17,986 bases of DNA, taken from IMG/VR virus record IMGVR_UViG_2667528065_000005; one strand, written 5' to 3'. Positions 4,778 to 17,986 of this stretch are shown piece after piece. The position numbers were made by a program, and so were the translations under genes. The notes beneath the pieces are model-generated. The model was not told the origin of the DNA. It saw only the letters and a program-made list of their open reading frames with translations, and did no database searches. Each line of letters starts with the position of its first letter. The first letter of the stretch is position 1. Origin of the DNA: a virus. Its lineage: Duplodnaviria > Heunggongvirae > Uroviricota > Caudoviricetes.

Positions 4778-4805
4778 GAGGGGATTAGACTTGAGATAAA
4801 TGACA

Positions 4806-4876
4806 GGGAATAAGTGAGATATTTATGGGAAGAACTGGGTCAAAATGGGAAGAGACTAGGAGGAATATGCAATAAC
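4806..4876. repeat. Spaced imperfect direct repeats (GGGAAnA / ATGGGAAGA.ACT.GG) near the prophage end; candidate transposase-binding end repeats
   Basis: Read directly: gggaataag about 4807, atgggaagaactgggtc 4825-4841, atgggaagagactagg 4845-4860, aggaatatg about 4861, at roughly 16-20 bp spacing within 100 bp of the junction. Confidence 0.3.
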
Positions 4877-4944
4877 CTTACAGTATGTGAAAATCAGACC
4901 GGCCCGAAAAAAAAACAGAACTCGCGCCAGCCTGATTGCAGATA

Positions 4945-5334
4945 TTACTCTTTTTTCTCCGTATCTGCATCGGGTTCATCAGCAAATAGCTTGCCCTGCA
5001 TCCGATCCAGTTCTTCTTTTCTTACCCGCTTAACCACGCTGTAGACCCACTGAAGCGAAACACCAAATTTGCGGGCCAGTTCGTGGTGGTTGCGTCCGTT
5101 AAACTCCCTGAAGATTTCCCGGTCGCGCTGACTGACCTTCCATACCATGCCCATCGGGAAATAAACGTTTTGCCCGCCCCAGACCTGCATCATTCGGTTC
5201 GCGACGGCCTGACCAATCTGGTCGGCAACTTCGGGCTCAATATCAATAATCTCGCGAACGGTCTCAGAGGTATGCTGTGCCAGTTCCACCAGGAGTTCCG
5301 GCCCCTTACTTCGAAACTGATTCAGGTCGCTCAT
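4945..5334 (-). CDS. mor: Mor/C-family phage transcriptional activator
   Basis: 129 aa. C-terminal ...GGQNVYFPMGMVWKVSQRDREIFREFNGRNHHELARKFGVSLQWVYSVVKRVRKEE matches the recalled Mu Mor pattern (GGGQVYIPRG...RD..I...FNGRN..EL...YGV....VYK..RR). Confidence 0.75.
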   Translation of the reverse strand: MSDLNQFRSKGPELLVELAQHTSETVREIIDIEPEVADQIGQAVANRMMQVWGGQNVYFPMGMVWKVSQRDREIFREFNGRNHHELARKFGVSLQWVYSVVKRVRKEELDRMQGKLFADEPDADTEKKE

Positions 5335-5755
5335 GTTTGACTCCCGCAGCTCTGCGCTGCCACTTCTTCAGTTTCTCAATAACACTGCTTGCCTGTTCAG
5401 TACTGAGCCAGCGCAGGGCGCTGATGCCCGTTTCCCGCTTGATCCACCTCGCTAATGCATTTTCTGAACGGTCACGAACAATGCCGGCAGCAGCCATTTC
5501 AAGCCATAGCGCACGAATTTTCCTGGACTGCGGATGGTTATCAAGCGGTAAACCGGAGCTGGCTTTTCTGGCTGGTTTAACGCGAAAGCCTTTCTTTTTC
5601 ATGGATTCCAGCACGCAGTTTAGTTGTGTGGTATCCATTCCTTTGGTTGAGGCTTTACCGGTCAGCCCCTGTAACATCTGGCGGTAGGTGTCTTCATCCA
5701 TACCCAGTTCATTACGGGCAATATGGATAAGCTGTATCAGGCGTTTTTTCTGCAT
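5306..5755 (-). CDS. gemA: GemA-like phage protein (Mu gp16 / DUF1018 family)
   Basis: 149 aa. N-terminal LIQLIHIARNELGMDEDTYRQMLQGLTGKAS...GF pattern typical of GemA-family proteins. Overlaps the mor start by 29 bp. Confidence 0.65.
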   Translation of the reverse strand: MQKKRLIQLIHIARNELGMDEDTYRQMLQGLTGKASTKGMDTTQLNCVLESMKKKGFRVKPARKASSGLPLDNHPQSRKIRALWLEMAAAGIVRDRSENALARWIKRETGISALRWLSTEQASSVIEKLKKWQRRAAGVKHERPESVSK

Positions 5756-5756
5756 A

Positions 5757-5963
5757 TCATCTCCTTTTTTTCAGTCTGTCGGCAACAATGTCGGTTGCAG
5801 CTGGCAGGGTGACTGGCCAGAACAACATGACGGCGGTCATGTACAGGATGTAATGCGCGGTGTCGTAGTGCCTGCCATAGCCCAGGGAACGATGAAGTCT
5901 TGCGCTGCATGATCCTGCGTACATATACCAGAAAAGAAAACAGACAATGGTTTCAGTAGTCAT
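5757..5963 (-). CDS. Small hydrophobic protein (about 68 aa, two predicted TM segments), hypothetical
   Basis: Internal ATG at 5963 preceded by a GGGGAGG Shine-Dalgarno. The longer 120-aa frame would overlap the upstream gene. Confidence 0.4.
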   Translation of the reverse strand: MTTETIVCFLFWYMYAGSCSARLHRSLGYGRHYDTAHYILYMTAVMLFWPVTLPAATDIVADRLKKRR

Positions 5964-6183
5964 TCTGAATACCTCCCCATTCGATATGAATATTACGGGC
6001 AGCAATGACAGGGTCGTTATTCCACCATGCACCTGACATGTATTTTTCAACCTGTTCGCGTCCGGCAATAACACCAATTGTGATCCCCGGCCTGACGTTC
6101 TTAAAAAAGGCGCGGGCAAAAAGGTATCTGGCAGATATTCGGCAGGCTTTTAATTTCCGGCTTTTACCTGATAGCGTAATCAT
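5953..6183 (-). CDS. Hypothetical phage protein (76 aa)
   Basis: ATGA start/stop overlap with the upstream gene at 6180-6183 and a GGAGG upstream; fits tight operon packing. Confidence 0.45.
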   Translation of the reverse strand: MITLSGKSRKLKACRISARYLFARAFFKNVRPGITIGVIAGREQVEKYMSGAWWNNDPVIAARNIHIEWGGIQNDY

Positions 6184-6863
6184 CTGGCCTCCAGTTTCTG
6201 TTGTTCCTGCCCACTGACCGGGCGGTGCAGTCTGACGTTCTGCCCTTCACGAAACCCCGCATAGCGCGAGGCGTCGCCATTGCGGCTTCTTCCCGGTTTA
6301 CGCGCCCTGGTGGTTTGCGTCTGCGGGTATTTATGTTCCAGCCACTGCTGCATCAGTTCACGCTCATCATCGGTCAGGGCAAAGGACTGTATTTCACTGA
6401 TAACGGCCAGCACCCAGCCTTCGGCAAACTGGTCTCCACGGCTGGTGCGGGTGGCGGTTTTTATTCTTTTGTTCTGTGCACTGATATACTGCTGACGCGC
6501 CTTTTTCAGCTGACGGGCCAGCACTTCCCAGGTGTATGCAGCCAGTGCCGCACGTTCCCGGTTGCCGTAGAACCCCACAGACGGATGCGTGCCGGGGTGA
6601 ATGATGGAGTTAACACCAAATACCTCGCGGATGATGTTCATCAGGCCCAGCATGTAGCGCGGTGGACGGAGACTGCCTGTCGGCCAGTAGTGACTGATGG
6701 TTTCATCAATATCACTCATAGCAATGTCGGAATGTGTGATGCCGTGAACATCCATCAGTTTACGGGCTCGGCGCAGTGCCAGAGCGGCCTCGTGCGGGTT
6801 GCCGGATGCGGCCAGCGCCAGCAACTTTTTCAGTTTCTCAATGTGTTTATTCTGGTCTGTCAT
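6180..6863 (-). CDS. Hypothetical phage protein with DUF2786-like N-terminus
   Basis: Translation from the internal Met (MTDQNKHIEKLKKLLALAASGNPHEAALALRRARKLMDVHGI...) resembles the DUF2786 N-terminal pattern. ATGA overlap with the upstream gene at 6860-6863; an alternative start at 6899 is possible. Confidence 0.5.
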   Translation of the reverse strand: MTDQNKHIEKLKKLLALAASGNPHEAALALRRARKLMDVHGITHSDIAMSDIDETISHYWPTGSLRPPRYMLGLMNIIREVFGVNSIIHPGTHPSVGFYGNRERAALAAYTWEVLARQLKKARQQYISAQNKRIKTATRTSRGDQFAEGWVLAVISEIQSFALTDDERELMQQWLEHKYPQTQTTRARKPGRSRNGDASRYAGFREGQNVRLHRPVSGQEQQKLEAR

Positions 6864-16730: not shown

Positions 16731-16772
16731 AATCTGTAAGCCTTTTACAATTATAAAAAATATGGCAGGCTA

Positions 16773-16794
16773 GTCTGGTCTCGCGAGACTGACT
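16773..16794. promoter_or_regulatory. About 22-bp imperfect palindrome with a perfect 12-bp core GTCTCGCGAGAC; candidate operator or activator site
   Basis: Read directly: agtctg-GTCTCGCGAGAC-tgact, core at 16778-16789. Lies about 48 bp upstream of the dam start and about 190 bp upstream of the first lysis gene. Confidence 0.35.
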
Positions 16795-16835
16795 GAACCT
16801 CGGTCGGCTCACAGCGCATTCCTGTGGGGCGATGG

Positions 16836-16873
16836 CCAGCCCGGTGTTCGGGTACCGGGCTGGTCGTTCTTTC
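16836..16873 (+). terminator. GC-rich hairpin (ccagcccgg / ccgggctgg, 10-nt loop) followed by a T-rich tract; terminator- or attenuator-like
   Basis: Read directly; function uncertain because no plus-strand gene ends just upstream. Confidence 0.3.
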
Positions 16874-16977
16874 AAAGTCATCATGCAGTGCACGTTTACA
16901 TCTTCACTATTAACGCTGTTTAAAATCCGTATCCCGCCACATTTGTGATGCTGTCTCCACCAAACGAGGAGACACAC

Positions 16978-17328
16978 ATGAAAAACCTGAAAAAATTCAT
17001 TCCCCCTGTTAAAAAACCTCGCCTCAGCGGCTGGCTGCTGACCTCAGTGCTGTTGCTGGGCATCATCGCTCTGGTCTCGCCACAGCAGTTGCCTGTTGTG
17101 ATCTACAAGCTGGCACTTATCACGCTGGCAGCAGTGCTGGGTTACTGGCTTGACCGTTCGCTCTTCCCCAAAGCCCGTCCCGGTCAGTACCTGAAACATG
17201 ACGACAGGCTGATGGCTGAAGGGCGTTTCCCGGTACAGACCGGCCTTCACCTGGTGTTTTCTGCTGCGTTAATCCGCCGTGCACTGATTGTTGCAGCGGT
17301 CTGCCTGGCTGTGGCAACAGGACTGTGA
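16978..17328 (+). CDS. Small membrane protein with about three TM segments; holin-like candidate, first gene of the lysis cassette
   Basis: Start MKNLKKFIPP preceded by GAGGAG. Hydrophobic segments WLLTSVLLLGIIALV, VIYKLALITLAAVLGYWL, ALIVAAVCLAVATGL. Directly upstream of the transglycosylase gene. Confidence 0.5.
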   Translation: MKNLKKFIPPVKKPRLSGWLLTSVLLLGIIALVSPQQLPVVIYKLALITLAAVLGYWLDRSLFPKARPGQYLKHDDRLMAEGRFPVQTGLHLVFSAALIRRALIVAAVCLAVATGL

Positions 17329-17330
17329 CC

Positions 17331-17986
17331 ATGAACTGGCCTCAAATCACCCTCATTATTCTGTTCGCCTTTGGTCTGGGCGTAACCGCCATCAGACACG
17401 GAGAACCACGTAACGATAAATACAGCTTCTGGTGGCAGCTTGCTGGCAACCTGGTGATTGTCTGGCTGCTCTGGTGTGGCGGCTTTTTCAGCCAGGCATG
17501 CGCAGCGCAGCCCCCGCAGGCTGCGCTGCAGTATCGCGATGATGTGATCCGTAATGCCCGGCTTGAATGGGGACTGTCTGCGCCGGTGGCCGATTTCGCC
17601 GCGCAACTGCATCAGGAAAGCGGCTGGCGACCTGATGCGATCTCGCCGGCTGGCGCTCAGGGACTGGCGCAGTTCATGCCTGCCACTGCCGACTGGATAA
17701 GCCAGTTGATACCGATGCTGAGCAGTCGTGAGCCGTTTAATCCGGCATGGGCTATCCGGGCGCTGGTCAGCTATGACCGCTGGCTGTGGCAGCGTGTCAG
17801 CGCCGCCAGTGACTGCGAGCGTATGGCCATGACACTGTCGGGCTATAACGGTGGTCTGGGCTGGGTACAACGGGACAGGCGGCTTGCATCACAGAAAGGT
17901 CTGGACAGCACCCGCTGGTTCGGACATGTCGCCACGGTGAATGCCGGACGCAATGCGGCCAGCTGGCGGGAGAACCGCCATTATCC
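17331..17986 (+). CDS. Lytic transglycosylase (SLT-domain) endolysin with N-terminal hydrophobic segments, possibly SAR-type; 3' end beyond window
   Basis: Own translation from the ATG at 17331: MNWPQITLIILFAFGLGVTAIRHG...WWQLAGNLVIVWLLWCGGFF... then the SLT catalytic region QESGWRPDAISPAGAQGLAQFMPATA. Open to the window edge; not in the ORF track because it has no stop. Confidence 0.75.
   Translation, partial: MNWPQITLIILFAFGLGVTAIRHGEPRNDKYSFWWQLAGNLVIVWLLWCGGFFSQACAAQPPQAALQYRDDVIRNARLEWGLSAPVADFAAQLHQESGWRPDAISPAGAQGLAQFMPATADWISQLIPMLSSREPFNPAWAIRALVSYDRWLWQRVSAASDCERMAMTLSGYNGGLGWVQRDRRLASQKGLDSTRWFGHVATVNAGRNAASWRENRHY

Follow-up and report, generated by a model that had tools for sequence, protein, structure and literature searches.

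We analyzed the virus record IMGVR_UViG_2667528065_000005, a stretch of 17,986 bp (the window) that makes up the entire draft contig AOQI01000070.1 of assembly GCA_000397365.1. Positions 20 to 4777 are Escherichia coli chromosome, comprising the 3' end of melR, adiA, adiY, and a 5' part of adiC that spans ∼166 codons, and positions 4783 to 17986 are prophage, the left 13.2 kb of a transposable element. We are highly confident that this prophage segment constitutes the left arm of a transposable myovirus of the BcepMu type with a Mu-like lifestyle, and that its layout, in which the early operon ends with mor at the element terminus and the lysis genes lie beyond the repressor, is native and not rearranged. 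This reading follows from the gene identities and their order, homology to the phages BcepMu and B3, complete sibling prophages, the element termini, and target duplications. The layout is already known: it is the long-published norm and hallmark of BcepMu/B3-type transposable phages, a lineage common in E. coli, and the gene map of Mu is not the yardstick for annotating such prophages.

Six-frame open reading frame (ORF) calls, Pfam, PHROGs, NCBIfam, and the annotation that RefSeq gives for an identical prophage all agree on the gene map. Leftward from the repressor, on the minus strand, lie genes for a small helix-turn-helix (HTH) protein, a winged-helix regulator, a 303-amino-acid (303-aa) protein, a transposase, and a B-like ATPase, followed by gam, several small genes, gemA, and mor. 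A prediction made earlier from the sequence alone (the original prediction) had listed these genes in the same order and on the same strand; all are present, and its list lacked one further small gene at 8515 to 8784 between the ATPase gene and gam. It had also put the end of mor about 165 bp from the adiC junction, close to the 162 bp measured between the start of the mor stop codon (4945) and the start of the sequence common to other copies (4783). The lysis genes do lie opposite the early operon across the repressor and read away from it, as predicted, but they do not adjoin the repressor, with ∼3.3 kb of cargo in between.

The same map is found in BcepMu (NC_005882; Summer et al. 2004, as cited in PMC2771037), whose layout of two divergent clusters with lysogeny control at the interface has been described in words (Lavigne et al. 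2009, PMC2771037). The annotated bottom strand of BcepMu carries Mor (gp01) at the left terminus, then GemA (gp02), the ATPase (gp08), the transposase (gp09), gp10, gp12, and gp16, and the top strand carries the divergent cI/Cro-type repressor gp17, followed by the holin gp21, the SLT endolysin gp22, Rz/Rz1, and the terminase genes. The phage segment of the window is 100% identical, in one ungapped piece and with zero differences over 13.2 kb, to a full-length prophage of 37.4 kb and 52 annotated genes in E. coli NZ_LR883012.1 (the sibling prophage), from which the rest of the element can be read. Rightward of the SLT endolysin gene the sibling continues with spanin, terminase, portal, head, P2-like tail, and tail fiber genes, an invertase, and the right end. 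By tblastn, 33 of its 52 genes match BcepMu in strictly collinear order and orientation, including sheath, tube, and P2-type baseplate genes collinear with gp39 to gp51. Shared with BcepMu are the order and strands of the genes, a cI-type repressor, and, as read in sibling copies, TG...CA termini with two repeats per end, a Mu-like head, and a P2-like tail. The E. coli element differs in having a Mu-type Gam in place of BcepMu gp03 to gp06, in carrying a DS-1-like gene pair and a Dam methyltransferase between repressor and holin where BcepMu has gp18 to gp20, and, in the sibling, in carrying a Gin-type invertase with an invertible tail fiber segment where BcepMu has an acyltransferase.

Complete copies elsewhere have the same layout. 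In each of the three sibling copies whose two ends were recovered, the termini are 5'-TG...CA-3' and the target duplication is an exact 6 bp: GCAAGG within the gene for a solute symporter, TGAAGG within one for a reverse transcriptase, and, for the copy in NZ_LR883012.1, GTCACC within a lambdoid tail gene. Such ends and duplications are the mark of genuine transposition into sites that are unrelated to one another. In the complete copies the terminus gives way to host DNA, and Mu-type late genes downstream of mor are not seen in them. The left end (attL, 4783 to 4944) contains two candidate transposase-binding repeats, GAGATAAATG (4793 to 4802) and GAGATATTTATG (4814 to 4825). Left and right ends have in common TGAT-N9-GATAAATG, with the second repeat ∼20 bp further in, and the ends of BcepMu have a homologous arrangement, TGAAG-N8-GATATTTC, at both ends. 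These end repeats would be bound by the transposase. Roughly one complete E. coli genome in eight (640 of 5,426) has the transposition genes, which lie at many chromosomal positions, and at least 80% of window positions 4000 to 17986 is covered in only 18 genomes.

Two deposited phages belong to the same lineage. The Escherichia phage PhiKM (PQ738613), filed under Bcepmuvirus at NCBI, is 95.8% identical over 74% of the segment and has an identical gene order, and the Klebsiella phage KP12 (OM835952) likewise shares the gene order; PhiKM and many other copies differ in the immunity and cargo segment between early operon and holin. We also note that the prophage of NZ_LR883012.1 interrupts the NlpC/P60 (K-like) tail gene belonging to a resident lambdoid prophage, a phage-in-phage arrangement flanked by the GTCACC duplication (positions 2644 to 3036 and 40431 to 40790 of the fetched locus, L002).

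The transposition proteins place the element with BcepMu and B3. The transposase (9964 to 11733, minus strand) is of the BcepMu/B3 DDE (rve) type (Pfam rve, E value of 1e-8), is 68.5% identical to BcepMu gp09 over 98% of its length and 57% identical to the B3 transposase, and has a DDE triad, D160/D254/E290 (D-x93-D-x35-E), that does not vary when the protein is aligned with its BcepMu and B3 counterparts. It matches 69 phage records, and no Mu record is among the 40 listed across the ranking. Its partner, at 8787 to 9953/9992 on the same strand, is a B-like AAA+ transposition ATPase of the ExeA/AAA_22 type rather than MuB (Pfam AAA_22, 3.8e-20; 59% identical to BcepMu gp08). The transposase has no Mu-specific Pfam domain, showing the rve core only, the ATPase shows generic AAA domains only, and a PDB sequence search with the transposase returned marginal matches to retroviral integrase cores only (best E value, 0.0058), with no MuA. 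The BcepMu transposase has itself been described as unrelated to MuA and distantly of the Tn552/IS1604 family, with termini that carry CA dinucleotides (PMC2771037). Transposase and ATPase are of the Tn552/TniAB-like type, not MuA/MuB. Together with the 33 collinear genes and the common map, the transposase identity supports the suggestion in the original prediction that the element resembles BcepMu-type phages more than Mu.

Mu (Muvirus; NC_000929) shares with the element replication by transposition, to which the ends and target duplications of the sibling copies point, the position of mor at the distal end of the early transcript, and a set of homologues. By tblastn, 9 of the 52 sibling genes match Mu: Mor, GemA, Gam, TerL, portal, F, G, a tail fiber fragment, and the Gin-like invertase. 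The Mu annotation confirms the gene order with which the original prediction contrasted the element: all Mu genes except c read rightward, with c followed by ner, A, B, then gam, gemA, mor, C, and lys, and then the structural genes. Mu has two Mor/C-family genes and the window element a single one, and the sibling copies have a 6-bp target duplication, in contrast to the 5 bp of Mu. MuA has no tblastn match to the sibling prophage even at an E value of ≤10, and nothing significant was found there for MuB (best E value, 0.11, elsewhere in the element), c, Ner, or the Mu endolysin. The element fails every Mu-specific test applied, whether MuA/MuB, gene order, or a Mor-then-C cascade.

A second relative bears on how closely the element should be assigned. 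The Pseudomonas phage B3 (Beetrevirus; NC_006548) shares this left arm, with mor at the terminus followed by gemA, a B-like ATPase, the transposase, a DUF3102 protein, a regulator, and an HTH protein, and then a divergent c2-like repressor, holin, SLT endolysin, and spanin, as in the window element. B3 differs in being a siphovirus with a non-contractile tail, in its host, and in its lower identity. On the shared left-arm order and the 57% identity of the two transposases, the window could be taken for a B3-type (Beetrevirus) transposable siphovirus, but we consider this very improbable: the transposase is nearer to that of BcepMu, the identical sibling has sheath, tube, and P2-type baseplate genes collinear with those of BcepMu, and PhiKM, the nearest deposited phage, is filed under Bcepmuvirus. 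The idea that the element is instead a relative of Mu or D108 whose early region was inverted or rearranged, or that it is a deleted remnant, so that its odd order is a secondary accident, takes up the alternative of a rearranged or deleted element named in the original prediction, and it has almost no credibility left. It would account for the Mu-family Mor, GemA, and Gam proteins (Gam being 61.5% identical to Mu Gam) and for the single element end within the window; however, MuA, MuB, c, and Ner have no homologue, the transposase is without Mu-specific Pfam domains, and full-length copies at three loci, their ends intact and flanked by target duplications, follow the identical order, as do BcepMu, B3, and hundreds of E. 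coli genomes.

Greater doubt attaches to the host side of this particular copy. That the layout is native while the copy itself is grounded with a damaged left terminus, or its adiC junction is an assembly artifact, is as a whole a possible, if doubtful, account. The homology to adiC ends at 4777, and the junction is not clean: next comes GAGGG (4778 to 4782), a filler that is neither adiC nor phage and replaces the essential terminal T of the element, and then GATTAGAC. All four of the other copies compared read TGATTAGAC at the left terminus where the window reads GAGGGGATTAGAC. The adiC 5' fragment (4268 to 4777, plus strand) breaks off after roughly 166 of its 445 codons and, aligned to adiC of E. 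coli D8, has an 11-bp tandem duplication at 4419 to 4429. Across the flank from 2289 to 4440 there are 11 tandem duplications of 11 to 33 bp, with a few insertions of 1 to 2 nucleotides (nt) and one 16-bp deletion, which break adiA, adiY, and adiC, while point differences are nearly absent. None of these changes, nor the adiC junction, occurs in the 5,426 complete E. coli genomes, where the best flank match is 96.8% identical and falls into 8 pieces, and the truncated AdiC product is encoded in only one assembly of a large collection. The spacing of the duplications fits overlapping pieces of 64 to 83 nt that were concatenated without merging, and the window is a whole draft contig whose first 19 nt (1 to 19) match neither melR nor any other fetched locus and are probably contig-end junk or another junction.

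For the irregular flank and junction themselves an assembly artifact is the probable explanation, and the adiC insertion is not secure; the host junction of this draft contig is unsuited as evidence for insertion into adiC until the reads are checked. Two observations speak for a sounder contig: the phage part shows no difference from NZ_LR883012.1, so that the contig is not poor throughout, and the flank end GGAGG resembles the ...AGG ends of two other target duplications, a hint of a real target site. A further variant, in which the GG junction and the 11 duplications are real and the flank bears the traces of an indel-prone process of repair or replication, set off locally at a transposable-phage end that has lost its capacity for cleavage, strikes us as improbable. 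Neither an artifact nor a grounded copy touches the internal gene order, which is error-free relative to NZ_LR883012.1; chimeric assembly, which the original prediction had named as a possible undoing of its claim, is conceivable for the host junction and leaves the layout unaffected.

Several points nevertheless weigh against the assignment of the window to a BcepMu-type prophage of native layout, or limit how far it reaches. Megablast of the segment found no DNA match to BcepMu, and protein identities are about 30 to 76% (31 to 76% in the collinear set). The usual ICTV practice for a genus is ∼70% identity over the genome. The element is a relative of BcepMu rather than the same species and does not show genus-level nucleotide similarity to it, PhiKM being filed under Bcepmuvirus nonetheless. 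It is also mosaic: BcepMu lacks both its Mu-like Gam and the Gin-type invertase that accompanies an invertible fiber segment in the sibling. The terminal TG of the element reads GG in this contig, after the 5-nt filler, and only the left end lies within the window, the right end being outside the contig, which bears on the completeness and mobility of this copy. Finally, inspection of the sequence is the source of three proposals made below, namely, an operator, a motif for late promoters, and a role for Mor in timing, and the late-element pattern was written post hoc, after the sites had been seen, making it a lead and not a test.

Given a native BcepMu-type layout, the early region can be described gene by gene, all on the minus strand. 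The first early gene (12964 to 13188/13194) encodes a small HTH protein and occupies the position that Ner has in Mu. Its best family match is NCBIfam BcepMu_gp16 (E value of 7.7e-7, below the cut-off); it also matches the PHROGs family phrog_769, annotated as transcriptional repressor (2.9e-5), and Pfam HTH_35 (0.0039, also below the cut-off). The label Ner-like given in the original prediction therefore holds by position only; Mu Ner has no match, and a true Ner homologue was dropped as a candidate. We note that this protein and the repressor show no BLAST similarity to BcepMu gp16 and gp17, respectively. Next come the winged-helix regulator (12659 to 12967; HTH_IclR, 1.8e-5; phrog_1368, 1.7e-44), which is 35% identical to BcepMu gp12 and homologous to B3 ORF14, and the 303-aa DUF3102 protein (11737 to 12648), a homologue of BcepMu gp10 and B3 ORF13. 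Beyond the transposase and ATPase genes lies the small gene at 8515 to 8784 (89 aa; phrog_2041, 1e-36), which is annotated in RefSeq and has a position like that of BcepMu gp07, and then gam (7957 to 8487; Pfam Phage_Mu_Gam, 1.1e-40), a host-nuclease inhibitor gene without a BcepMu counterpart.

Between gam and gemA, seven small or uncharacterized early genes fill 5757 to 7859, each belonging to an existing PHROG family. In the direction of transcription these are two small genes (7665 to 7859 and 7396 to 7668), a fragment of a MazG-like nucleoside triphosphate pyrophosphohydrolase gene (7090 to 7386), another small gene (6860 to 7075), a DUF2786/DUF7168 gene of 227 aa (6180 to 6863), and two more small genes (5953 to 6183 and 5757 to 5963). 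gemA, of the Mu gp16 family (5306 to 5755; Pfam GemA, 8.3e-41), encodes a protein 44% identical to BcepMu gp02 and 36% identical to Mu GemA, and mor (4945 to 5334; Pfam Mor, 1.3e-43; 54% identical to BcepMu gp01) is the last early gene. Overlapping or abutting as they are, the early genes probably make up a single operon of ∼8.3 kb whose last gene, mor, lies beside the left terminus. In this otherwise tightly packed operon a 97-nt gap (7860 to 7956) separates gam from its neighbor; a small ORF on the opposite strand is annotated there in PhiKM, and an internal promoter or terminator is possible.

The control region lies between the two arms. A cI/DicA-type HTH repressor gene (13277 to 13684, plus strand; HTH_3, 2.2e-11; Phage_CI_repr, 2.9e-6; NCBIfam matches to the DicA and RstR subfamilies) is divergent from the early operon and separated from the first early gene by an 88-bp gap. 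That gap contains a candidate early promoter, Pe (13260 to 13233, minus strand), TTGACA-16-TACAAT, with 11 of 12 consensus matches, the best sigma-70-like site in positions 4700 to 17986, and a candidate operator, the inverted repeat ACACAC-N8-GTGTGT (13238 to 13257), overlies the spacer of Pe. We infer from their sequence and position that the site at 13260 to 13233 is the early promoter and that the inverted repeat is its operator.

The most likely course of the lytic cycle can be drawn from this arrangement. In the lysogen, the repressor would silence the strong divergent early promoter, probably through the inverted repeat over the promoter spacer. Upon induction, Pe would drive a single leftward operon of ∼8.3 kb that begins with the gp16-like HTH protein and ends with Mor. 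Transposase and ATPase would then act on the TG...CA termini, with their two repeats per end, and the genome would be replicated by transposition, leaving 6-bp target duplications. Since Mor is promoter-distal, it should appear and accumulate last, which may serve as a delay. A single Mor/C-family gene is present in the 37.4-kb sibling prophage, where Mu Mor and Mu C both match mor alone, so the two-step Mor-then-C cascade of Mu would be collapsed to one step; a second Mor/C gene ahead of the lysis genes, like Mu C, was looked for in the same prophage and none was found. From its place at the far terminus, this single Mor-family activator would have to work in trans, its target late promoters all being on the other arm, ahead of the holin, head protease, tail-assembly, and baseplate W genes. 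The lysis, head, and P2-like tail genes would then be read rightward, away from the repressor.

The lysis genes and their upstream region offer candidates for such promoters. The holin gene (16978 to 17328, plus strand; Pfam Holin_2-3, 4.7e-41; 55% identical to BcepMu gp21) and the SLT-domain endolysin gene (17331 to 17986, plus strand; Pfam SLT, 1.4e-14; 61% identical to BcepMu gp22), of which the N-terminal 218 of 242 aa are encoded before the contig ends, are both transcribed away from the repressor. Homology to PhiKM upstream of holin resumes ∼70 bp before the start codon, and the conserved block contains TTAACGCTGTTTAAAATCC and then TGTGATGCT (16910 to 16960, plus strand), a candidate Mor-dependent late promoter. 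Elements close to this one precede the tail-assembly and baseplate W genes of the sibling prophage, a variant, TAAAGCAGATTAAAATC, precedes the head protease gene, and a related element, TAAAGCCGATTAAAAGACC, stands at two places in BcepMu, one ahead of the holin and one ahead of the protease. A loose pattern for the element has three matches in the prophage, all on the plus strand and intergenic, against 0.15 expected from shuffles; we regard these elements as candidate late promoters. The nonconserved part of the Dam-holin intergenic region, which PhiKM does not share, also has strong palindromes at 16773 to 16790 (GTCTCGCGAGAC) and 16837 to 16864 (CCAGCCCGG-N10-CCGGGCTGG, then a T-rich stretch).

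The cargo between repressor and lysis genes (∼3.3 kb; 13755 to 16730) has a low G+C content, 0.38 to 0.45 versus 0.51 to 0.61 elsewhere. It encodes a YejK/NA37-like protein (13755 to 14762, plus strand; Pfam NA37, 1e-80; NCBIfam DS1_1, 1.4e-17), a 401-aa membrane protein (14765 to 15970, plus strand; NCBIfam DS1_2, 3e-21), and a Dam-family N6-adenine DNA methyltransferase (15960 to 16730, minus strand; Pfam MethyltransfD12, 7.3e-28; TIGR00571 dam, 1.3e-33, above the cut-off). The pairing of a YejK/NA37-domain protein with a partner is the same as in DS-1, a validated two-gene anti-phage system with a YejK-domain protein (DefensePredictor; PMC13092281). Both cargo proteins score below the NCBIfam cut-offs, with 63.7 bits against a cut-off of 330 for DS1_1 ("nucleoid-associated anti-phage protein") and 75.9 bits against 315 for DS1_2. 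By sequence, the pair at 13755 to 15970 is likely a distant variant of DS-1 and is not a member by the curated thresholds. PADLOC models gave nothing for the NA37 protein and a weak KwaA match (8.1e-5) in the C-terminal region of the 401-aa protein, on which Kiwa was not called. The pair comes directly after the repressor gene and is read in the same direction, in the position where cargo expressed in the lysogen is usually found, and the slot beside the repressor carries a DS-1-like candidate defense pair.

At the other extremity of the element, the right end of the sibling prophage (39251 to 40356 of the fetched locus) carries the Gin-like invertase, 76% identical to Mu Gin, together with oppositely oriented tail fiber genes. 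This invertible host-range segment is without a BcepMu equivalent, and the main fiber gene is annotated there as a pseudogene.

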